In this document: one piece after another, positions 13,930 to 31,168 of the stretch
Numbering within the stretch: the stretch's first letter is position 1
Layout: each line of letters opens with the position of its first letter
Assembly (NCBI RefSeq): GCF_033153115.1
Contig: NW_026889751.1
Location: 3,596,001-3,660,000 of the forward strand
DNA: 64,000 nucleotides
Source of the DNA: Saccostrea echinata
Lineage: Eukaryota
Direction of reading: 5' to 3'
Notes under the pieces: model-generated
The model's database searches: none
Told to the model about the DNA's origin: nothing
What the model saw: the letters and a program-made list of their open reading frames with translations, nothing else
Made by a program: the position numbers and the translations under genes

Positions 13930-15312
13930 CGTTGTCCGTCGTCCGTCCGTCTGTAAACTTTTCACATTTTCAACTTCTTCTCAAGAACCACTGGGCCAAT
14001 TTTAACCAAATTTGGAACAAAGCATCCTTGAGTAAAGGGGAGTTTAAATTGTTAAAATAAAGGGCCAAACCCCCCTTACAAGGGGAGATAATCAAGAAGA
14101 GACAAAAATAGGGTGGGGTCATTAAAAAATCTTCTTCTCAAGAACCACTGGGCCAGAAAAGCTGAAACATAAGTGGATGCATTCTGGGGTAGTGTAAATT
14201 CTAAATTGTTAAAATTATGACCCCCGGGGGAAGGGCGGGGCCACAATAGGGAATCCAAGTTTTACATTGAAATATATAGAAAAAATCTTTAAAAATCTTC
14301 TCAAGAACCACTGAGCCAGAAAAGCTGAAACTTATGTGAAAGCATGCTGGGATAGTGTAAATTCTAAATTGTTAAAATCATGACCCCCGGGGGAAGGGTG
14401 GGGCCACAATAGGGAATCCAAATTTTACATTGAAATATATAGAAAAAATCTTTAAAAATCTTCTTCTCAAGAACCACTGGGCCAGAAAAGCTGAAACTTA
14501 TGTGGAAACATCCTGGGTTAGTGTATATTTTAAATTGTTCAAATCATGACCCCCGGGGGAAGGGCGGGGCCACAATAGGGAATCCAAGATTTACATTGAA
14601 ATATATAGAAAAAATCTTTAAAAATCTTCTTCTCAAGAACCACTGGGCCAGAAAAGCTGAAACTTATGTGGAAGCATGCTGGGGTAGTGTAGATTCTAAA
14701 TTGTTAAAATCATGACCCCCGGGGGAAGGGCGGGGCCACAATAGGGAAGTTTTACATTGAAATATATAGAAAAAAAATCTTTAAAAATCTTCTTCTCAAG
14801 AACCATTGGGCCAGAAAAGCTGAAACTTATGTGGAAGCATCCTTGGGTAGTGTAGATTCTAAATTGTTAAAATTATAACCCCTGGGGACAGGGCGCGGCC
14901 ACAATAGGGAATCCAATTTTTATATTGAAATATATAGGGAAAAAAACTTCTTCTCAAGAAGCACTTGGTCAGAAAAGCTAAGACTTTTGTAGAAGCATCC
15001 TTGGGCAGCGTAAATTCTAAACTATTCAAATCTTGACCCCTGGGGGTAGGGCGGGGCCACAATAGGGAATCCAAGTTTTACATTGAAATATATAGAAAAA
15101 ATCTTTAGAAATTTTCTCCTCAAAAACCTCTTGGCCAGTAAAGCTGAAACTTATATGGAAACATCCTGGGTTAGTGTAGATTTTAAATTGTTAAAATCAT
15201 GACCCCGTGGGTAGGGAGGGGCCACTATAGGTATTACAAAAAGATCCTCTGGTGAAGAACAGCAGGGCCAAAGTTATTCAGGTGAGCGTTGTTGCCCATG
15301 GGCCTCTTGTTT
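13882..15312 (+). mobile_element. Complete HINE/Helentron-like element with ~165-bp tandem array
   Basis: 5' TTTTTAGCTCACCTGAGCTGAAAGCTCAAGTGAGC, (GTCC)n, about 7 near-identical units, 3' subterminal TCAGGTGAGC and hairpin GCCCATGGGC-CTCTTGTT. Confidence 0.85.
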
Positions 15313-16371
15313 GATGTAGTTGTACTATGTAAATTTTCATATGCAAGCTGCGTACGTCGTGTGTCGGTGGTAAACTTTTGAATATTTCAGCTTCTATCTT
15401 CTCTGGAACCCCTGAACCAGTTTCAACTAAATTTTGCATGTGGGTAGAGCCATTATGGGTGGAGGAGAACAAACATTTTGAATTTCATGGTCCCTGGCCT
15501 CCTGTGGGTACGTCTAAGGATGGGGCTAAAACCATCAAAGTCATTGCAATCTTTAGAGAATCTTTACTCTTGAACATCAAACAGTCAAACTAGCTGTTTC
15601 ATGATTGTAAAAGGCATTGAGCCCAGGCCCCTGTCCCAGAATTGTGAAATTCATGGCCCTAGCTGGGTCATGGGTTCTGGAGTTAGGGAAGGGCTTTGTT
15701 GATCATAAAGTGAAAATGCATGTATTCTTTAAAAAGCTTCTTCTCCCCCCCCCCTCCCCCCCCCCCGTGCATGCATATCGAGGAGACAGACAAAATAAAT
15801 GATTATGATGAATAAATGTGCCTCTTCAAAACTTGGGAAATTCACTGCCCCTGGGTCACGGTGCTGGTGTTAAGTGCGTGACTCTGTTGATTATATGGTG
15901 AAAGTGAATTCATTCTTAATTTTCTTTTCTCTGCCACTGTGTATTAAGCGTACAAACTTATTGAATGGTTATGATGAGTAAGGGTGCCTCTTCCAAAATT
16001 TATGGAAAATTCGTGGTCCCTTGATCAGGAGTTCCGGTGTTAGAGAAGGGCTTTTTTGATCTTACATAGTGAAAATCATTCATTCTTTCGAAAATGTTCT
16101 CATATTCCCTATGTATTAAACAGGTGAACTAAGTGCATGGCTATGATGTCCCCTGTCCCCCTGGGGTTTGAGGGGTAGGGCCAAAACATGCAATCAAAAT
16201 TATATAATCTTTTAAATTCTTCTTCTCTACTCCAGGACACCAAGAAGTAAGTCAAAATGTGCACTGAGCCCTCTACCAAAATTGTAAAATCGATGGCCAC
16301 AGAGTAAGGGATTCTGGGTTGATGGTGGGGCACTTGATCATAAAGTGTAAATACAATTATAATTCATTAAA

Positions 16372-17441
16372 ATGCCACTGGGCATGGATCCTTCATTCAA
16401 CAATGGAGTGATCAGTGGAATCAACGGGACTTCGCAAAACTCGTCCCTTAACATACAGTTTCAAGGTAGTCAATTACATGTACAACCTTATATGCCACAA
16501 AGTCCACAAGGACAATTTGCAGGTTTTCTGTCGCCAATACAAACCCAATCGAACACTGTTCCTCAGAGTATTGATATGCGCGAAACTCTAACAGTTATAT
16601 GCAACAAACTTGAATATGTGTCATCTAAACTAAATACCCTGGATCATATAGATAAAAGGTTAAGTGACCTTGAACGAAATGTAAGTAGTGTTAATCAAGA
16701 ACTCAAAGAACTGAAAAATATGAAAATTAAAGTTGAAGACATTGAGAAGGGAATGAACCATATAGCAGTACAATATGATGAGCAACAAAAGGCTGTGAAG
16801 GAAATCGAGCGGACAGTGAAAGAAATAGACAAAAGGTCGACCTCAACATTGAAAGAACATGAAGCGATGCGTGAAGAACTCAAAGCAGTACGGTTAGACT
16901 TGAGTGACCTTAAAGAACGTCACCTAGATTTACAGACAAGGTCAATGAGGGATAACCTAATATTTGACGGGATACCAGAAACTCATGATGAAGACGCAGA
17001 GACTTTGATAAAAAACTTTTATTATTAAGAACGAGCTGAATATCACAGACAACATTGAATTCCATTGGGTGCATAGAATGGGGAGGAAGGGTGGAACCAG
17101 ACCGCAACCGATAGTTGCAAAATTTGTGCTGCACAAAGACCGAGAAAGAGTTAGACGTGCAGCCCCTTGATCTTTAGCTGACAAGCCATATGGAATTAAC
17201 GAACAATTTCCGAAAGAAATCAATAAACGGCGTAAACAACTATATCCCCAGTACAAAGCCGCCAAAAGACAGGGGAAAAGGGCTACACTTGTTGTTGACA
17301 AGCTTTTCGTCGAGGGACAATTGGTGCCATTACAGACCAACCATTTAGGAGACCGATTATCATTTCCAGCATTTGAAAACCGCGCGGCGCCGCCGCCGCA
17401 GACAGCGCACGTAAACATCAGGAATGCGAATACGCACTAGG
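16372..17441 (+). pseudogene. LINE ORF1 (coiled coil + L1-type RRM/CTD), disrupted
   Basis: Heptad coiled coil, RSMRDNLIFDGIPE; after a frameshift near 17020 continues HRMG...PQPIVAKF...INEQFPKEI...LVVDKLFVEG with an in-frame TGA near 17168. Confidence 0.85.
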
Positions 17442-17606
17442 ATAACCAAGGAGAACTGCACAAACAGGAACTTGCAATGTGTTAGCACTGGTTCTCTGCC
17501 CTTGATTCCAGTCGCTGCCGCTAGGAATTACAATTGGTTTTTCAGGGCGCTTGCGCCCGTTAACCAATGTCAGGGTACCAGTCTAGCAATGTGTAAACAA
17601 TGAGAC

Positions 17607-17683
17607 CACTCGGCACACCTCGGCCGATTCGTACCTCATCAAGTTTGATGAAGGTGACGGAATCAGCCGAGGTTTGCCGAATG
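17607..17683 (+). mobile_element. 77-bp hairpin MITE, copy 2, in the LINE inter-ORF region
   Basis: CACTCGGCA...TGCCGAATG flanked by a perfect 9-bp duplication CAATGAGAC (17598-17606, 17684-17692). Confidence 0.85.
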
Positions 17684-17711
17684 CAATGAGACGAAAAACT
17701 CTCTCAACACG

Positions 17712-19939
17712 TTGAAAATAATTAGTCTAAACGTTTGCGGACTCACATCAAAATTACAAAATCCTGAATTTATCGAATTTATAAATGAAAATGATATTAT
17801 TTGTCTAACAGAAACAAAAACAGATAATGCTGATAATATAGAAATTAGAAATTTTAATGCCTTTTGTAAACATAGATTATCGTTGTCCTCGAGAAAATCA
17901 GGTGGGATTGTTGTATATGTTAGAGATATTTATTCTAAATGTGTTACTATAATAGAAAATGAATGTGAACATGTATTGTGGATAAGATTATTAGGGAAAG
18001 CTTTTAATTTCCAAAATAATGTAATTATTGGTACTGTTTACATCCCACCCATAAATTCTCGGTTTTCTACAATAGATATTTTTGATGAAATAGAAAGAGA
18101 AACATGTAATTTTATTGAAAGTTCTGGTAGCATTTGTCTAATCGGCGATTTTAATAGTAGGGTTGCTATGGAGAAAGATTTTTTTGAAAATATCAACTCT
18201 CATAATAATGATCATTCATTTTCAAATGACATAATTGATGAAAATATTTTTCTTAGTGATTCATGTGATGTTTCAAACCTTGAAAAATACGGATTATCTG
18301 TTAATAGAAAGTCAAAAGACAAAACATTAAACCAATCTGGTAAAAAATTGTTAACTTTGTGCAAAAATTGTAATATTTTCATACTAAATGGAAGATGTAA
18401 CACTGATGTAAATGGTGAATTCACTTGCAAAAACTGCAGTATAGTAGACTACTGCATTGCAAATATTAACTTTATCAAACATGTTTCAGAAATATGTGTT
18501 TTACCATTTTCTACATTGTACTCAGATGTGCATAATCCAATAACGGTAAAAATGAGAATGTATCCTGAACCAATGAATCCAACTATAGAAAATATCCCAT
18601 GACATATGATTGTAATAATCAATCAGAAAAAGCTAAGAGGTGGAATAGTGATGAGAAAGTAATTTACCAAAACTGTGTTGAAAATAAAGCTAGTAAAATT
18701 GAAAGTTTAGAAGATGAACTTTTAAACTGTGGTGAAATTTCTTTAGATTTTATTGATAATATTGTTGAAAAAGCTGGTGAAGTTTTAGTTGGAAGTGCTA
18801 AGGAAGATCTTCAACACGAACTGAATATTTTTAACAATTATTGTAAATGATGGCATCTGAAAGCTAACACTAATAAAACTAAGGTTGTTATCTTTGGAAA
18901 AGGCAATCCAAGAATTGAAAAACCATTTACATTAAATGGTAATATATTAGAAATTATTGATAATTTTAAATATTTAGGTGTAAATTTTTGTAAAAATGGT
19001 TCATTTAATACAAATATTAAGGAATTATTTCAAAAAGCAACAAAAGCTATGTATGGTGTTATAGGAAAATGTAGAAAACACAACCTTACTGTAGAATGTA
19101 CATTAGATATGTTTGACAAAATTGTAAAGCCTGTATTTTTATATGGATGTGAAGTATGGGGTTATAATCAGTCACCATTAGTTGAAAAGTTGCATTTAAA
19201 ATTTTGTAAACATATTTTACATGTAAAATCATCTACACCAAATTTTATGGTATACGGTGAATTAGGTAGATACCCTCTTTCAATTAATATTAAGGTAAGA
19301 ATGATAAGTTTTTGGTGTAAATTATCTCTTTCACAAGGTGATAAATTATCATCAAATCTGTTAATTGTTTTGAAGAACTAGAATAGTCCATGGTGTAACT
19401 TTATCAAATCTATACTGAATGAATGTGGGCTTTCTTATATCTGGCAAACTTGCCAACCAGTGCATGTATCTTGGCTGAAGAAAGTAGTTTTTAACACTCT
19501 GTATGATCAGTTTAATCAGTCATGGTACAGTGAAATGTTTAATTCACCTAAAGGTCTTAATTACAGAATATATAAAACTTCATTTTGTTTAGAAAAGTAT
19601 TTAGTATCTTTGCCTTGTAAGTACTGGAAATTATTATGTAGGTTAACTTGTAATAATAAATTGCCGATTGAAGTTGGGAGATGGCAAAATGTACCAAGAG
19701 AGAATAGAATTTGTAAGTTATGTTCAAAAAATGAAATTGGTGATGAATATCATTACTTATTCAATTGTAATGATCCATTTATTCTGAAATCAAGATTATC
19801 ACTAATATCAAAGTATTACTATTTATATCCAAATGTGTATAAGTTTGATCAACTTTTTAATACAAAAAATACAGTTAAATTGATAAAACTGTGTAAATTT
19901 ATAAAAATTATCTGTGAGAGAGTTGGCTCTCCTGGTTAG
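17712..19939 (+). pseudogene. LINE ORF2: APE endonuclease + C-terminal part of RT + Cys/His finger; RT core deleted
   Basis: SLNVCGL, CLTET, VYIPP, IGDFNSR, SIVDY, SDVH endonuclease motifs; jumps near 18800 to DLQ...KTKV...FKYLG, YGELGRYPL, LPIEVGRW, CKLC...DEYH...C; several stops and frameshifts. Confidence 0.9.
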
Positions 19940-21928: not shown

Positions 21929-24900
21929 TTTATTTGTTTTGTTTTTTCTTGTTTGTTTGTAAACTTAGTATCAGAATTTAACAATAATGTAGTATATTGT
22001 GTATGAGTAAGTAATGGTACAATTCTACAATTTTGTATTGTGTCATATTAAATACACACATTTTAAAACCAGAGAGAGAGAGTGAGAGAGAGAGATTTGT
22101 ATATTCCCATCCCTGTGATGGATACATCATATTATTTCCAGACATCACTAGAAATCTGCCCATACAAAATCCAACTTCATTCATTGATTTCGATTTGTGG
22201 ATATATAGATAATTAAATAGTACTTCGTATTTCGACGCAATAATTTGCGAACCGGCACAGTAACTATCAAAGAATCGGAGCAGTTTGGTGCATTGTCCTA
22301 TTGTACTTAACAAAATTTCAAGTATATGCATGAGGGTGAGGTGATATTACTACAGTAAATGGAGGGAAAACCGGAAAACGCATAGTTAATATTTCTTAAA
22401 AAAGCTTATAGAGTTATTCCTCTTTGGTCCTGTAGAACTGAGTTTTACTTAACATGTCGCCTAATATTATCATTAAAGACATAAATAAAACTTAAGAATG
22501 GTCATCTATTTCTTAAATTTTATACTAGCATTATAATCAAGCGAAGAAAAAAAATCCGCGGATAGTAAGACAACGATAAATAATATTTAACATAAAAGTT
22601 AAACTCAATATAAATTCAAATTAAAATGAAAAATCAAATTGAATTTATTAAAAATAATCATCCATTCATACGAGTTTATTTTAACAATCTCCACGTTCAC
22701 CAAGCCCAAGTCGGTATATCGACCCTAAACTAACGGAACAATCGGGAACATCACACAGGCTTTTCCGTCAAGTCGAGAACAACATCGGCTTTTTCTTTCA
22801 AGTAGAGAAAATTTATTAGTAAAAAAAAATTATTGATAGAATTTCATTTCAACAACTCCTGACACTCATGATCAAAAGTAGGTTTACCGATCCCGTTTTA
22901 TTTTTAAAGACAACTAATGGAACAATCGGAAAATCACATGGCATTTTCCTTCAAGTCGAGAACATCACTGGGCCTTTTCCGTCAAGTCGAGAAAAACCGC
23001 GAGGTTTTATGTAGGTTGACGATAGAGGCTGAGTGAATACCGATTTCAGTAGATCATATACATATATATCATTGCTAGTTATAAACAAAGCCATGCTTCT
23101 CAAAATTCATAAGACATAACAACGGTTCAGAGTATTCTTGAAAATAGGCCAAAGGTCAAGGTCAGGTGGACTGTATCACTGATATTTTTCAACATGTCTT
23201 TTGACAAACAGTGCACTTGCCTAATAGCAAAACTTACCTCTGAAAAGGTCAAAGAATATGTGAAAATCGGTAATATGGTATATTTTGAAAAGTAGGTCAA
23301 AGATCAAGTTCAAAGGTCACGAGGTCGGTAACCCTGGTATTTCACAAAAGCCATTCTTCCAAGCAATAGATGAGCCAAATTTCAAATCCCAACCTTAAAC
23401 AGTTCTCAAGATATAAGGTGTGCCAGGCAAAGTGATTTTTAAGTGTAGTTCTGCTCTACAGGCGACACAAAAATATGTTAATCTGCAAAAATCTCTTAGG
23501 ACTGCAGTTTCAGTTTCTTGAAAAAACTATAACTCTGTCTTGTATAGAGACTTTCAAGTCGTTTGATAAAGGACCATGATTTAACGTGAACCTCACATTA
23601 AATTTAACAAGCTAATTCAGAGAATTTGTGTCCCCCGCCTAAGGAAAAAAGACCATACGCGGATCTAGAGGGGGAGGGGGCGGATCCCCTGGATCTACAG
23701 AGTTATTAAATGTATATACTGAAGCAAATAAAAAATGACTTTGGACCCCCCCCCCTCACCAGAAAACGTGGACCTCTTTTAAGAAATATGTTTTTCGCGG
23801 TTGGGGAAGGAGTTTAGGTTGTTTTTTCTAAAATTATTATTAATTTTTGCTCGTCAAGAAATTTTTTGGGTTGGATACATTTGGGAAAGGAGTTTAGGTT
23901 TTTAATTTTTTTTCTTTTATTATTATTATTGATTTTTTTTTTGTTTGTCTGTGTGTGTGCGTGTGTTTTGCTTGTCAAAATTTCAGGGTTGGAAATTTTT
24001 TGACTGGGGAGGAACCCCCTCCCCCTGGAAAAGAATCATGGATCCGCGCCTGGAAGAGGGTGGAAGAAATGGAATAATTTCTCAGATGGAGAAAGAAAAA
24101 AAGGTCAACCTTGACCTTCAGTTTTTGGTCTTAAGGCCACAAAGATTTAAAAGCTAGATTTTCGTCCTAATTTGCTTAAAAATTGGGGCGGGTGGGCGGA
24201 TTTTATTTTATTTTTTTTTTTTTTGTTACTGTAAACATCTATATAACGATCTTCTTATACAAAATTTTCACATTGTGAATGCCAATATGGATAAATAGTT
24301 TTGTTTATTTATTCTGTAAAATGGCCTTTTTCTAAATATATAATTATATTTTTTTCGTTTGACCAACAAATACTGGTGCTTTGTCTGAAAATATCACAGA
24401 TTTCCACTGTCCTTTTAGTTCTTGACGCGTTCGATATTGTCAAAATTTTACACAACAGAGGGTGTCTAATTTAGTCTTTACTAAACAGTTCTAATAGATT
24501 TACCATAGGACTTAACGTGATCAATAGAAGAAAAATATTTATTGAATTTTGAATGTGTGAAGATGCATAAAGCATACAAAATTGATTGCTTTGAGGAAGA
24601 ACAAACAGCAATGTGCAAGTTAACTGCAGGTTCGATTCTAATATGAATTTCAATAACAGATTTATCTATGGTGAGTAGCAATACCTAGTGTTATACGTTT
24701 TATTCAATAAAAAAAATATTCACTAGAGTAAAATTAATTTATTTCGAGTTTGATACCAACAAAGTACTTTTACTTCAAGAGTTATTGATTTTTACTGGAG
24801 TATAAATAATTTTACTGGAGTATAAATAATTTTACTGAGGTAAAAATAATTTTACTAAAGTAGTATTTAATTGTGAGTATAGCAATTGTCAGTATTTTAT

Positions 24901-25666
24901 TTTAACTGCAGTAAAAATAATTTTATTGCTGTAAAGATGAATATTTAGTAACATATTCATCCAAAGGCAGACTGTATGTATTATCACGATGAAAATTTTA
25001 CTGTTATAAGAGATTTTTCTAGTTTCTAAAATTAAGTTACTGTTTTGTGTTTTTTTGAACAACTCTTTCAAAATTCTTGAGCTTTTCAAATCATTTTCTT
25101 TATTGAATTTACGACTCTTAATCTTTATTGAATTAAAACATCGGCGATTTCAGATAATCCAAGCCAATTGGGTTTAACACCTGTCATCGTTTGATATTGC
25201 TAAATTATCTTTATGCAAAATAACATCAAAAGGACGATAATCTGGCCCTCAATTATTTTAAGGGTTTACTCAAGTGTCAAAACCTTTATCTATTTATCTC
25301 CAAATGTCATTTTTACACATGTCACTCTATAATTGTTATATACACTGTATACTGTTGAATTTGGTTTGGATGAGCAGTCGGAATCGGACAGCCGTCCCGA
25401 GTACACCGACCTGTATCAAAATTTGTCAGTTCCATATTAAAAGTTAAAACGCTGGTTGGAGTTTGTCTCTAATCTGTTTAATAAGACTCATAGATAGAAA
25501 GGAGCGCAGATCGTGGCTGACAGAATCCGTGAGCGGCATCGTCAGGGAACTCAAAGAGAAGTTCTTCAAGCGAGAAATAAGACGTTCATATTTCTACATA
25601 GTCTTATTTTAGCACAGCCTGAGTGTTGATCGGGCGAGATAATTTTTTTTTTTAAATTGTGCTAAT

Positions 25667-25682
25667 TGGTGGAGAATCCGGG
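25667..25682 (+). promoter_or_regulatory. tRNA primer-binding site (tRNA-Ala-like)
   Basis: TGGTGGAGAATCCGGG directly after repeat A1; its reverse complement ...TTCTCCACCA resembles a tRNA-Ala 3' end. Confidence 0.75.
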
Positions 25683-25767
25683 TACAACACCACCTCTCAT
25701 GAAGCTAAGCGAGTATTCCCCAAATCTCAAAGTTTCCGAGGACGACCAGCTTTAACATTGGACTGGC

Positions 25768-26430
25768 ATGCAGTTCCGACCACAGTGGCAGGTTTCAGCG
25801 CCGCTTTGCAGCAGATGTAACAGACGGCATTACTCCGTCTGCAACGCCTTGGAGAAACGCTGCCATAGATGTGGAGAAGAGGGACACTTTAGCAGAGTGT
25901 GCGGAGAACGTTCGTGCCGCGCTGTAAAATCGGATGCAAAGAGGAAAAGGGACACCGAACGACTGCAGGATTACAACAGCAGGAAAAGGTTGTTCCGGGT
26001 ACTTCCGTTTGCAAACATAAGTGATTCCAAATTTAAAGAGTGTGTCAATTTAAAGTCAGTGTTTTCATCAGAAGTTCAGTCCGTGGTAAAAGATCTCCAA
26101 TATACAAAAGCGCTAATGAAAATGGACATTGAAATCCTAGAATGGAAATTGCAGAAACAGTCAAAGTCGAACGAGGAAAAAGATCAACAGATAAAACTGT
26201 ATTCTACATACTTAAACTATGCCGTGTCAGATCTAAAGAAACTTTCCGGACTTGTTTCCCATTACAACTGGCTTCTGGAAAATTATGAAATGGAACACAT
26301 CGTACTGCGATCAATCAAACAGAACTGTATGTGTAAAAGAGATGTTGAAAACAGTAAACTTGTCCGAAGGGAATATAGACAGTTTAAAGATTCTGAATTA
26401 TACAAAGAAATTTTGAACACTAAATTTTGA
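25768..26430 (+). CDS. Gag-like protein with two zinc knuckles and a coiled coil (220 aa)
   Basis: CSRCNRRHYSVC and CHRCGEEGHFSRVC (CX2CX4HX4C); an in-frame upstream ATG at 25699 is cut off by TAA at 25753. Confidence 0.7.
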   Translation: MQFRPQWQVSAPLCSRCNRRHYSVCNALEKRCHRCGEEGHFSRVCGERSCRAVKSDAKRKRDTERLQDYNSRKRLFRVLPFANISDSKFKECVNLKSVFSSEVQSVVKDLQYTKALMKMDIEILEWKLQKQSKSNEEKDQQIKLYSTYLNYAVSDLKKLSGLVSHYNWLLENYEMEHIVLRSIKQNCMCKRDVENSKLVRREYRQFKDSELYKEILNTKF

Positions 26431-27743
26431 ATATTTACTATTGCACAATGTTAATTTTATATTTACATGTGTATATTTTTTTTAAGTTTGAGGACAAACT
26501 TTTTGTGGCAAGGGGAGAATTGTCATATACAAATTTAAATTGAAAAATTCTAAATTTTTGTATAGGACAGATTATCACGATGAAAATTTTACTGTTATAA
26601 GAGATTTTTCTAGTTTCTAAAATTAAGTTACTGTTTTGTGTTTTTTTGAACAACTCTTTCAAAATTCTTGAGCTTTTCAAATCATTTTCTTTATTGAATT
26701 TACGACTCTTAATCTTTATTGAATTAAAACATCGGCGATTTCAGATAATCCAAGCCAATTGGGTTTAACACCTGTCATCGTTTGATATTGCTAAATTATC
26801 TTTATGCAAAATAACATCAAAAGGACGATAATCTGGCCCTCAATTATTTTAAGGGTTTACTCAAGTGTCAAAACCTTTATCTATTTATCTCCAAATGTCA
26901 TTTTTACACATGTCACTCTATAATTGTTATATATACTGTTGAATTTGTTTTGGATGAGCAGTCGGAATCGGACAGCCGTCCCGAGTACACCGACCTGTAT
27001 CAAAATTTGTCAGTTCCATATTAAAAGTTAAAACGCTGGTTGGAGTTTGTCTCTAATCTGTTTAATAAGACTCATAGATAGAAAGGAGCGCAGATCGTGG
27101 CTGACAGAATCCGTGAGCGGCATCGTCAGGGAACTCAAAGAGAAGTTCTTCAAGCGAGAAATAAGACGTTCATATTTCTACATAGTCTTATTTTAGCACA
27201 GCCTGAGTGTTGATCGGGCGAGATTTTTTTTTAGAAAAAAAAGTGTGCTAATTAATTGTCATATACAAATTTAAATTGAAAAATTTCTAAATTTTTGTAT
27301 AGGACAGTATGCTTCAAAACAAATTAGTATTACAATTACAAACAGGGCAAAATGATCTGCAATTAACTGGAATGGCAAAACGAAACCCAAAGGAAACTGA
27401 GAGAAGAAAATGACGTGAATGTACACGTACACCTGTATTTAATTTTTCTTTTCTTACGCTTTTTTTGGCACTTGCAAAATGGGAATAATGTAAAAGTAAA
27501 TTATTGCAGAACAAATAAAATTCAATAAATAAAAATCATCCGAATAAACTTTTCACGTAGCAGTTATAAAAAGAAGGTAGCAGGCAAAAAATTTATTTAA
27601 CCAGAATTAGTTTTCACTTTTTATATAGATCTGGGTACATATTCAGCATTATTTTTTTTCTGTTGTTGTTGAACTAGTAGTATTGAAAATTCGAACCGGA
27701 TCCACTCCCATTAATAATTGAACCACCTGGTTTGTGCATTTTA

Positions 27744-27903
27744 NNNNNNNNNNNNNNNNNNNNNNNNNNNNNNNNNNNNNNNNNNNNNNNNNNNNNNNNN
27801 NNNNNNNNNNNNNNNNNNNNNNNNNNNNNNNNNNNNNNNNNNNNNNNNNNNNNNNNNNNNNNNNNNNNNNNNNNNNNNNNNNNNNNNNNNNNNNNNNNNN
27901 NNN
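27744..27903. other. Assembly gap
   Basis: 160 N. Confidence 1.
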
Positions 27904-29197
27904 TGTCCTTTTGTTTTCCAGCTCGACAGCTGTTATATTTAAAAACTTGAGTGTGTTTGACAGATGGTGTTATACATTATACAAATGGTTAAATGAACCA
28001 TTAGACGGCAGCCACGAACTGGATACTAACACAAAAGCAGGGATGATACGATATCCGATATCAAAATCTTACATTGACCTCTAAATCATGTTGAATAAAT
28101 CCGGACTTCAGGATTTGTGTTATAATTGATTAATCCATAAACGCATAAATATTTATATTGACTGAATGGGAAATATTTATATTGACTGAATGGGAAATCT
28201 GAAAACAGGAAACTTTTTTTGCCCAAAAAATTTTTGTGCTTAATTGACATAAAATGATCATAGCATAGTGTATTTGATCCTGAAAGTAGCTTCCTGCTTC
28301 ATGTTCAAACAGCTTTTCAACATTCGAAATGACATATAGCTGCTGCATGGATCGATAGTGGGAACTGCTGCTTTCCGCAATGGCTAGATGAAAGTTGTCT
28401 TTAAAGTCTACCAAGACAACCTCTTGATCGACGCTGGATTGTTTTCAGTAGCTGCTAGACACGAGGAAACCTTCAAGGTACGTACAAATAACATATTTTT
28501 TTAAATTCTTTTAAACTTTCACAGTAGTGCATAAAATGAACATTTTTGTATGAACAGAATTTGCTGTTCTAGTCCCCACTGTGACGGTCGACAGATCAGA
28601 TATGTATTTATATGAGAAATTCGTGATTCACAAATAATGAGTAGTCTTATTTGTATGTTACACTGGTGCCACTGTGGTCAGTAAATTCTCCATGTCTATA
28701 TATAGAAAAGTATTTACCTACATGAAACAATAGTCTCATGATTCAATAAAATCTGAAATGTAACGTCTCGGTTATTGTTAAATATGGTGCAACATTTCAG
28801 AAGAAATGGTGAATTTTACTTCATTTGTAGTGATAAAGGAAATTTTGCTCTTAAAGAAAAGCACCGACCATTTTTCTTCTTAACATTTTTAAAATTATTC
28901 ATTAGCTATATAGATAATGCTCTTATATAGTTTCTAATATGCAAAGCGCTGTAAATGAACCTTTTACTCCGTATTATTCAGAGACATACCATCAATTTAC
29001 AAGGAAAAAAAACGGAGATTGCTTTAAAATTACCTTAAAATTACACACAAATCGACCACATAAACTGTAGTATTTTGCTGCAGTTTAGTGGATTTATTTT
29101 CTTCCACAGATAGTGCGTTTAAAATTATAATGTCATTAATGATTAACAATATAACAACGTTAAATGGTAACGTTTTAATTTAAACCCATTTTGCATG

Positions 29198-29199
<2 letters not shown>

Positions 29200-29272
<73 letters not shown>
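29200..29272. repeat. (TA)n microsatellite
   Basis: Pure TA run; a (TA)n(GA)n tract also lies at about 36277-36326. Confidence 0.98.
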
Positions 29273-29276
<4 letters not shown>

Positions 29277-29914
29277 CCCTTGTTGCTACCAAACAATGAC
29301 AGAAAATCGAAATTCAAATGGTGTTTTATTTCTCAAATGTGTCTTTGAAACACTTCTTACATGCCTAACAATGTGAAATCGATTTTTGAACTTAAACAAA
29401 CCTAACTGACAAAAAAGTATTGAACCTTCTATACTCTAGATCTCGGAGACAATACTTTCTCTTGCCATTAGTAAATTTCTTCTCCATCGTAAAAGTGCTA
29501 ACATGAGTGGATATCTAAGGTGATTTATGGACATTCTCGTCATAAGAACATTTTTCAAATTCTTATCAAAACTCTTCTGCACATAGGGAATAAAGGATGG
29601 AAGTATGGCATCGGAAGCAAGAAACATAACCGCCGCTCGATATTTTCTTCACATTCTTAAGAGGTAAGCAGTTAAAAAAGTTATAGTAGTTTTACTATCT
29701 TCATAATGCAAGTTAGACCAGTCTCTAATTTTTGAAATTGAACAACATCTTGAACTCATATAGTTTGATAGTTTACTAGAGAACAAATTTTCCAATAAAC
29801 TTTGAAAATATGTGATCATTGGGATGAACATTGGCTGATATGCTGAAAACTTTCTTTGGTCTCGCATGAAATGACTAGATTTTTCTGTTTTCACAGATTG
29901 CTCTTTTGTTGAGC

Positions 29915-31168
29915 ATGCGATCATGTGTCCGATTTCTGACATGGCGAAGATGCAGGAATTGCAGGAATTGTCACAGTCCGTGTCTCCTTCTTACAATTCC
30001 ACTGTTCCTCTGGATTTTTTTTCGTCAACAAAGGACGCCTGTTATTACAGTATTTGCTCATATTTCCAGCATCGAGACAGAAAACCTCCACAAATACTCA
30101 TATTCCAACAACTTTCCACGGAAGGGATGCCCCCTTTCTCTCAATACTAGTCATTTACAAAATGTCCAGGACTATAATGGTTATACTGTGAATAGAGTTT
30201 TATTCCAGTGTGCGCCACCGTTAAACATTTCTAATATTCGAAAGAAGAAACTGGCATTTATGCCTCTTCTTTATCCTCTAGAGCTGGATATTGTACAATT
30301 AGTAAAAACACAACTCGAGGGCAAGAAAATAGTCAATGAACCCATCAATCTACATAATTTTAACTATATTCACCAAGGACAAAATATATGTAAAGAATCT
30401 AACATATTTCTCATTTTAGTTGTAAAATCTAGAGTGGAAAATTTCTTAAACCGACATGTCATTAGGAAGACTTGGGGCAATATTAGCAATTACGAAGCTG
30501 TTAAAATTGTCTTTCTTCTTGGTTTTAACAGAAGTGTGCAAAGACGAGTTGATACTGAGGCTTTGAAATATAGAGACATTGTACAGGAAGATTTTTTGGA
30601 CAATTACTCGAACAACACATTAAAAACCATTATGGGTTTAAATTGGGTTTCCCATCACTGTCGTAATGCCCAGCTAAGCTTTTACGTAGATGATGACGTT
30701 TTTCTTATCGTAAATAATTTCAAAAAATTCAGGAAATCAAGGAACCAAGGTCCTGAAATGATGTTAGGTAAACTTCTGTCTCATTCTGTACCGTACCGGG
30801 ATAATACGTCAAAATGGTTTGTGTCGTGGGAAGACTATCCATTTGACAAGTACCCTAAATATCTTGCAGGATACGCCTATCTCATGTCAGCGCTTGTTGT
30901 TAAGAAATTTGCTCTAGCTATACCTTATATCCAAACTATTTCAATCGATGACACTTATCTTGGTATTGTAGCAGAAAAACTGAAAATTGTGCGCAAAAAT
31001 CAGCCCGGTTTCCTGATGAAGAAACCTGGACCAGTATCAAACAATGCTGTGACGATGAATTTTCGAAATACATTAGCATATCATCAAATATCGTCCCCTG
31101 AGTCTATGATGCAAACGTGGATAGAATATTGTAGAGAAAGTAAATTCTGTTCACCGACGCTTGCTTGA
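29915..31168 (+). CDS. GT31-family beta-1,3-galactosyltransferase / B3GNT-like type II membrane protein
   Basis: First ATG at 29915 after acceptor TTTTCACAG (29896); N-terminal TM segment; ILVVKS, RHVIRKTWG, VFLLG, DIVQEDFLDNYSNNTLKT, YVDDDVF (DxD), SKWFVS...YPKYLAG, IDDTYLG. Possible 5' UTR exon ends at 28477 (AAG|GTACGT). Confidence 0.93.
   Translation: MRSCVRFLTWRRCRNCRNCHSPCLLLTIPLFLWIFFRQQRTPVITVFAHISSIETENLHKYSYSNNFPRKGCPLSLNTSHLQNVQDYNGYTVNRVLFQCAPPLNISNIRKKKLAFMPLLYPLELDIVQLVKTQLEGKKIVNEPINLHNFNYIHQGQNICKESNIFLILVVKSRVENFLNRHVIRKTWGNISNYEAVKIVFLLGFNRSVQRRVDTEALKYRDIVQEDFLDNYSNNTLKTIMGLNWVSHHCRNAQLSFYVDDDVFLIVNNFKKFRKSRNQGPEMMLGKLLSHSVPYRDNTSKWFVSWEDYPFDKYPKYLAGYAYLMSALVVKKFALAIPYIQTISIDDTYLGIVAEKLKIVRKNQPGFLMKKPGPVSNNAVTMNFRNTLAYHQISSPESMMQTWIEYCRESKFCSPTLA

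Follow-up and report, generated by a model that had tools for sequence, protein, structure and literature searches.

The 64-kb window (the whole stretch of DNA that was analyzed) carries, at positions 24982-27306, a young non-autonomous retroelement of 2.3 kb, whose parts follow the order A1-PBS-ORF-PPT-B1-A2-B2 (PBS, primer-binding site; PPT, polypurine tract). On balance, we lean towards the explanation that this non-autonomous, gypsy-derived LTR retroelement inserts from an end-joined DNA copy, and that a DDE enzyme provided in trans opens an internal pair of ends.

Layout of the element and its priming signals

Self-comparison of the region 22001-30000 revealed two pairs of direct matches: A1 (24980-25667) with A2 (26571-27253), at 97.4% identity with gaps, and B1 (26518-26570) with B2 (27254-27307), at 98% identity. 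This permuted two-repeat layout is far above chance (E = 0 and 5e-19, respectively). The features delimited within and around the element are as follows.

24978-24981 (+): left 4-bp flanking repeat GTAT, a probable target-site duplication (longest flanking repeat among the mutation-free parses)
24982-25667 (+): A1, the 5′ copy of LTR part A, starting with TATC and ending with GTGCTAATT (its match to A2 begins at 24980)
25667-25684 (+): primer-binding site of the tRNA-Ala type, whose first T doubles as the final base of A1 (assigned from the tRNA genes that a PBS-derived pattern retrieved)
25768-26430 (+): ORF of 220 aa with a gypsy Gag-type double zinc knuckle followed by a helical/coiled-coil region (zf-CCHC, E = 0.0019, below cut-off; Gag-Pol alignment)
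26510-26517 (+): polypurine tract AAGGGGAG, with purines continuing to 26519 (sequence)
26518-26569 (+): B1, the first 52 bases of the LTR, AAT followed by a hairpin TGTC...GACA (alignment, folding)
26570-26572 (+): 3-bp spacer GAT between the right-end GACA and the left-end TATC, an abutted end pair inside the LTR (end parsing)
26573-27253 (+): A2, the remainder of the complete 3′ LTR, whose last 25 bases are unlike A1 (alignment)
27245-27262 (+): LTR-end/LTR-start join, with AATT|AATT at 27250-27257 and the break between 27253 and 27254 (sequence, self-comparison; organism C contig aligned over 27186-27283)
27254-27306 (+): B2, the displaced start of the 5′ LTR, which closes the insertion with CA (alignment, end parsing)
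27307-27310 (+): right 4-bp flanking repeat GTAT (the same 4 bases stand on both sides of the palindromic mini-element of locus L002)

The order of repeats (A1, internal region, B1, A2, B2) implies that the full LTR of reverse transcription is B+A and, because the PBS abuts A1 and the PPT abuts B1, the A2|B2 border represents an LTR end joined to an LTR start. Paired complete TG..CA LTRs do not border the element: the 5′ repeat is without B, a B copy lies at the right end, and the LTR ends read AATTG..TAATT. The repeat order A1-B1-A2-B2 is that of the PAT/Ngaro/VIPER type. The cores of A1 and A2 differ by only 1 substitution and one 7-base indel over 658 columns, which indicates a young copy. 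B1 and B2 differ by one indel, whereas other copies of B are 81-83% alike, which indicates that B2 derives from the same element. The hairpin of B1 (z -4.3) was not matched by any of 200 shuffles; the GC content of the window is approx. 34%. A scaffold gap of 160 N (27744-27903) begins 440 bases to the right of the element.

The placement of the priming signals, a tRNA-type PBS beside the 5′ repeat and a PPT beside the 3′ repeat, is that of an LTR retrotransposon. The tRNA type of the PBS was assigned with a pattern built of the 16 bases following A1 and a tRNA loop motif; as this motif by design picks out tRNAs, it is the isotype that constitutes the result. The pattern matched at least 120 prokaryotic and 4 viral loci. 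Among the matches listed (124), a tRNA ended at the match in 85 cases and not in the remaining 39, and the isotype was Ala in 82 of these 85 tRNAs, with 2-3 mismatches to the 18-mer of the window (the tRNAs are from prokaryotes and viral contigs and act as stand-ins for those of the host). The exact PBS 18-mer had 19 prokaryotic matches, none of them a tRNA, and a separate PBS-pattern search of viral contigs gave no match. No tRNA genes were found within the 64-kb window, and the 6 Rfam matches in it were all far below the gathering threshold. The PPT of a bivalve TRIM is reported, in an excerpt of the source, as GGGGAGA (PMC6934838).

The domain search of the ORF detected no protease, reverse transcriptase (RT), integrase or recombinase in the element. 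The N-terminal knuckle pair of the ORF family aligned with the gypsy-order Gag-Pol protein P0134, which contains RT, RNase H and rve domains (probability 96%, 47 columns, knuckle region only); we take the knuckles to be Mag-clade-like. Judged by these knuckles, the tRNA-Ala-type PBS and the PPT, the element is probably a non-autonomous, gypsy-derived LTR retroelement.

Among 601 candidates, 4 close homologues of the ORF were obtained, one of which is the window's own protein. The profile gave 136 matches, many through the knuckle alone; ten of these were looked up and included three clusters with bivalve names (Mytilus, Pinctada), while several had members on many contigs. The ORF (25768-26430) belongs to a wide bivalve family with an M..F.PQW start, two knuckles, an LPF motif and a coiled-coil tail, of which several clusters are multicopy. 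At the N-termini of P0031, P0035 and P0044, read-through yields a translated motif that, by eye, resembles the PBS frame of the window. Longer fused homologues were absent from both sets of candidates (0 of 5457 and 0 of 4950; weak evidence), and the protein-based metagenome scan for relatives confirmed 0 of 264 stretches; neither of these searches revealed an autonomous partner or enzyme. The Atlas search gave no match above 0.82, and its structure rows were below threshold.

The LTR-LTR join and the ends of the insertion

The A2/B2 border reads GTGCTAAT-T-AATTGTC at 27245-27260, exactly as described in the sequence-only reading. Within the window, GTGCTAAT is confined to 25659 and 27245, and AATTGTCATATAC to 26518 and 27254. 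The LTR end thus lies directly on the LTR start (27253|27254), with no host DNA between them. The LTR boundaries proposed earlier hold in that the end of A1 adjoins the PBS and the start of B1 adjoins the purine tract; the exact start of U3 does not follow from them, since the purine run extends to 26519 and U3 could begin anywhere within 26518-26521.

HIV-1 two-LTR junctions keep the last A of the tRNA primer, and in some insect gypsy elements the LTR terminates in an AATT that overlaps the PBS. It had been proposed that the additional T of the join is such a retained primer base. A T equivalent to that at 27253 is present at 25667, where it opens TGG, so that A1 also reads GTGCTAATT. Because the A1/A2 match runs through the T at 25667, this base is the “LTR end” and the first base of the PBS at once. 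The proposal was therefore not established: it concerns a single base, shared with the PBS and inseparable from an LTR that ends in AATT, and a T would occupy this position by chance in approx. 1 of 3 cases (T fraction 0.33). The primer-base idea is compatible with the join, but a single base is weak evidence for it. The palindrome noted at the join is present, with symmetrical ends (AATT...AATT), but it means little by itself, since AATTAATT occurs 10 times in the window. The proposed ligation of cDNA ends agrees with a join that contains no target duplication, which is the structure expected of a cDNA circle or concatemer formed by ligation.

The two LTR ends, which ordinary LTR replication should leave identical at insertion, are not so: the last approx. 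25 bases of A1 and A2 (25640-25667 versus 27220-27253) differ at many places, and strong divergence is confined to this part. The last bases of A2 form a T9/A8 foldback, a weak T/A hairpin that 18 of 200 shuffles equaled. This divergence counts against a freshly made join, unless a single later template switch occurred in the T/A run.

In order to define the insertion ends, we enumerated parses with a flanking repeat of at least 3 bases, which gave ten rows, four of them mutation-free. The mutation-free parse with the longest repeat is 24982-27306, with TA..CA ends (TATC..GACA), GTAT flanks and a GAT spacer at B1|A2. A parse with a 5-bp flanking repeat requires one substitution, and the exact permutation without duplication (24980-27307) is likewise mutation-free. 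The probability of finding a 4-bp repeat by chance within ±3 of the border is 0.041. The left and right insertion ends are complementary cuts of one B|A border, and between the left end and the inverted right one only 10 of 18 bases agree (2% background). The GAT donor spacer does not match the target.

The observation that the LTR end lacks the canonical CA applies to the end beside the PBS (TA|ATT). However, B2 does close the inserted copy with CA, next to a 4-bp flanking repeat; the absence of CA beside the PBS hence argues for a moved integration end and not against a DDE enzyme.

Related copies and palindromic mini-elements

Four contig sets (X1, X3, X5 and X9), out of 14 runs listed, were aligned to positions 25640-27740 of the window. 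X1 and X3 yielded one short piece each (<90% alike), X5 (organism A) 6 pieces and X9 (organism C) 169 pieces, with the internal ones 85-90% alike among the matches listed. Record 4 of X5 spans the internal end, B1 and A2, B is also joined to A in record 13 of X9, and records 5 and 6 of X5 contain B alone, with unlike sequence on both sides. The summed depth in X9 was mostly 9-29 in the internal region, 55-214 in A, 618 in the B1 bin and 0 in the right flank. Loose ends in X9 were located behind B (12 and 7 contigs, with low agreement) and before B (5 contigs); none of the 13 that were listed (60 were not) was at the start of A, though the layout should give some.

One X9 contig (depth 11.7) aligned with 27186-27283, i.e. 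across the join and 30 letters into B, the bridging threshold being 31 letters. Contig extents were taken as the end of the aligned part, a reading checked on record 2 of X3 and record 4 of X5. An end at this position fits the expectation that a contig should stop on entering a high-copy repeat. The internal pieces of X9 are 85-90% alike, versus 1 substitution in 658 columns between the A copies of the window, which argues that this contig represents an independent copy. The A|B join is therefore probably a family trait, recurring in an independent copy of organism C, as far as can be judged from alignment. That the “fossil” join was a one-off is rendered doubtful by this comparison among contig sets, in which a diverged copy aligns across it. 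No contig of organism A, for which cover was low, aligned across the join or the right flank.

Elsewhere, B forms approx. 100-bp TG..CA palindromic mini-elements with the same 4-bp flank. The metagenome scan for B revealed 2 loci (L001 and L002), in host-like DNA that shares other repeats with the window; A, the PBS and the ORF were absent from both. In L001 (1588-1664), B is preceded by a partial tandem B, with no left arm in the 1.6 kb upstream. L002 (1735-1834) is a 100-bp palindrome with TG..CA ends and GTAT on both sides, whose right arm is a B copy (fold z -12); inverted ends with a 4-bp duplication were thus present at 1 of the 2 loci. In two X9 contigs, an inverted B-like arm directly precedes AATTAATT, from which it follows that the palindrome is not specific to tail-to-head joins. 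The patterns of B had no match in the viral and prokaryotic collections.

The four bases following the CA of B are GTAT (window, L002), ATAT (L001), ATAC (consensus rows of X5 and X9) or AATG (a mixed X9 row). Unlike flanks follow this CA in 12 and 7 X9 contigs and in 2 X5 contigs which, together with the terminus bordered by GTAT on both sides in L002, suggests that the CA of B behaves as an integration end with an RTAY-like preference. We favor an origin of B as the start of an LTR over a DNA mini-transposon, given its position immediately after the PPT and the AATT|AATT present at both kinds of join.

Several other features were observed in the window: (i) arrays of a 165-167 bp satellite (14125-15231 and 54625-57579), presumably the 166-bp oyster satellite, with related repeats in L001, (ii) a broken LINE-like element (16363-19939) with a coiled-coil ORF, an endonuclease ORF (PF03372) and downstream pieces, (iii) an intronless galactosyltransferase ORF (29879-31168; PF01762, E 2e-46), (iv) on the minus strand, a DDE_Tnp_4 transposase ORF (38591-39469), which we take to be Harbinger-like, with no link to the element seen, and (v) CDC20/Fizzy exons (43830-47443), including a 78-bp tandem repeat (47094-47435) of 4.4 copies of the end of one exon and its border. 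The satellite, together with the Mytilus and Pinctada names among the homologues of the ORF, suggests that this animal DNA is from an oyster.

Proposed route of insertion and comparison with known systems

The proposed cycle would begin with an RNA running from A1 into A2. An autonomous partner would copy it into B-A-internal-B-A by reverse transcription primed at tRNA-Ala and the PPT. The cDNA would have blunt AATT ends, the last T possibly from the terminal A of the primer. Lacking a usable CA, these ends would be joined by host ligation to form a two-LTR circle or a concatemer, and with it the A|B join. An integrase or transposase of the DDE type, supplied in trans, would then cut 52 bases into the 5′ LTR, where GACA and TATC abut across the 3-bp spacer; the spacer would be lost, and insertion would follow at an RTAY-like site with a 4-bp duplication. 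The product, A1-internal-B1-A2-B2, could again yield a complete LTR pair. In favor of this cycle are the placement of the PBS and PPT, the complementary insertion ends, the mutation-free parse, the close match of B1 and B2, the organism C contig, the behavior of the CA end of B and the Gag-like knuckles. Weighing against it are the failure of the searches to reveal an enzyme or autonomous partner, the lack of A-start loose ends among those listed, the unlike last bases of A1 and A2, the limited likeness of the left and right ends, the chance level of the 4-bp repeat and the equally mutation-free exact permutation.

A broader form of this proposal is decidedly more tentative. In this form, an animal lineage of gypsy-derived, tRNA-primed retroelements would have shifted its integrase ends from the cDNA termini to an abutted pair within the LTR, making circularization by end-joining an obligatory step. 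The abundant TG..CA palindromes of approx. 100 bp would be by-products, each formed when two cut-off B ends were joined head to head (AATT|AATT) and the same enzyme inserted the result; in this way, the ends of retroelements could give rise to miniature DNA transposons.

The same layout could be produced in other ways. The element might be a non-autonomous split-direct-repeat element of the PAT/Ngaro/VIPER type, moved by a tyrosine recombinase, with an A2|B2 border that is inherited and not remade in each cycle. The A1..B1-A2-B2 order is that of PAT, Ngaro and VIPER, the exact permutation at 24980/27307 is mutation-free, the unlike ends of A1 and A2 suit an inherited join, and both Ngaro and DIRS elements are present in bivalves. 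We nevertheless consider this explanation unlikely: a tRNA-Ala PBS and a PPT are located exactly at the end of A and the start of B, the knuckles are gypsy Gag-like, and no tyrosine recombinase is present in the element. There is also a 4-bp flanking repeat, whereas insertion of the DIRS type leaves no such repeat and depends on a short core of identical sequence; here, the donor spacer is unlike the target.

A similarly small chance is given to an accident, one-off or occasional, in which an ordinary LTR element gave a dead-end two-LTR circle that was broken and then taken up during repair, the explanation closest to the “fossil” proposed earlier. Linear cDNA is indeed ligated into two-LTR circles, the 4-bp repeat would be seen by chance in 4% of cases, and no loose ends starting with A were among those listed. 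However, the break immediately follows the CA at which B-type insertions terminate elsewhere (L002 and the contig sets), and the diverged copy in organism C, aligned across the join, appears to share it. Moreover, ordinary integration would need a CA that the LTR end beside the PBS does not have, and no junction of an ordinary insertion was observed.

The excess of B (summed depth in X9 of 618, versus 9-29 in the internal region) raises a further question, namely whether B represents one half of a palindromic, Ginger-like DNA mini-transposon that is independent of the element. The locus would then be a composite of two TATC..GACA units, and AATT|AATT a footprint or chance join and not a product of joined cDNA ends. 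Its occurrence without A, PBS or ORF in L001 and L002, the 100-bp TG..CA palindrome with a 4-bp repeat in L002, the AATTAATT between inverted B copies in two X9 contigs and the precedent of composite DNA transposons in molluscs (KolobokP) are in line with this idea. We see only a slim chance of it: the start of B lies immediately behind the PPT, X5 record 4 and X9 record 13 show B joined to A, and the segment between the AATT repeats opens with the PBS, closes with the PPT and has no inverted ends. In addition, the outer end TGTCC is unlike the TGTNR of Ginger, and the sites are unlike RTATAY.

An assembly artefact, which the nearby 160-N gap (27744-27903) and the lack of aligned organism A contigs (low cover) across the join or right flank might suggest, is highly improbable, since B1 differs from B2 and A1 from A2, the complementary ends carry a flanking repeat, and the join is also found, by alignment, in another organism.

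Other assignments were rejected: (i) B1-A2-B2 as a TRIM with B as its LTR (no PBS or PPT inside), (ii) A alone as an LTR starting with TGT at 24977 (no matching duplication after A2), (iii) a DNA transposon made up of the internal region and inserted at AATT (inverted ends are absent), (iv) Troyka, which, according to an excerpt of the source, needs CG..CG termini and a 3-bp duplication (PMC12440569), the ends here being TA..CA, and (v) KolobokP (RR..YY ends). The B mini-elements lack the TGTNR termini and RTATAY target of Ginger2 (L002 ends with TGTCT/TGTCC at the site GGTATG).

If insertion from an end-joined copy is correct, copies that keep the LTR-LTR join and end at internal sites would represent natural circle-first insertion by a DDE enzyme. 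A two-LTR circle was proposed as the retroviral integration precursor in 1984 and, as recounted in part of a later paper (PMC11054761), was set aside for linear DNA. It would also be a second route to the split-repeat layout, which annotators take as a mark of tyrosine recombinases; such copies would be overlooked, or given wrong borders, by LTR finders that rely on paired TG..CA repeats. If the ends of the element are the source of the palindromic mini-elements, retroelements would be linked to the birth of MITEs.

We found no description of such an element in molluscs in the literature, although Repbase and the supplements of papers may hold the family. The comparisons that follow draw on excerpts of the cited papers. 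The biv-TRIM and other non-autonomous bivalve LTR elements (PMC6934838) are likewise short, without pol and with a similar PPT; unlike the present element, biv-TRIM has paired repeats, no clear PBS and no ORF. The mini-element of L002 resembles Ginger2 (PMC2836005) in its TG..CA ends and 4-bp duplication, Ginger2 having inverted repeats of 50-180 bp and an AT-rich target. It differs in the outer end (TGTCC and not TGTNR) and in sites other than RTATAY, and no transposase was seen.

The A1-[internal]-B1-A2-B2 arrangement is shared with PAT, Ngaro and VIPER (PMC4157794, PMC6681497, PMC9210276, PMC8547959), and in all of them is best explained by a circle opened inside the repeat. In contrast to these elements, which encode or use a tyrosine recombinase, the one described here has a tRNA PBS, a PPT, gypsy-type knuckles, a CA end and a 4-bp flanking repeat; DIRS-type insertion is described as making no target duplication (PMC3266345). 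With the two-LTR junctions of retroviruses (HIV-1, foamy virus; PMC13332604, PMC4372172, PMC11054761) it shares a palindromic join and, as proposed, the ligation of unprocessed ends. Retroviral integrase can act on the circle, cutting at the LTR-LTR join and removing it (same sources), whereas here the join is kept and the proposed cut lies 52 bases inside the LTR. The abutted ends with a short spacer recall the minicircle junction of IS2 of the IS3 family (PMC3219604), which is cut in the circle by a DDE enzyme and has one TA-3′ and one CA-3′ end; IS2 is a bacterial DNA transposon without an RNA step, and the likeness is one of analogy and not kinship.
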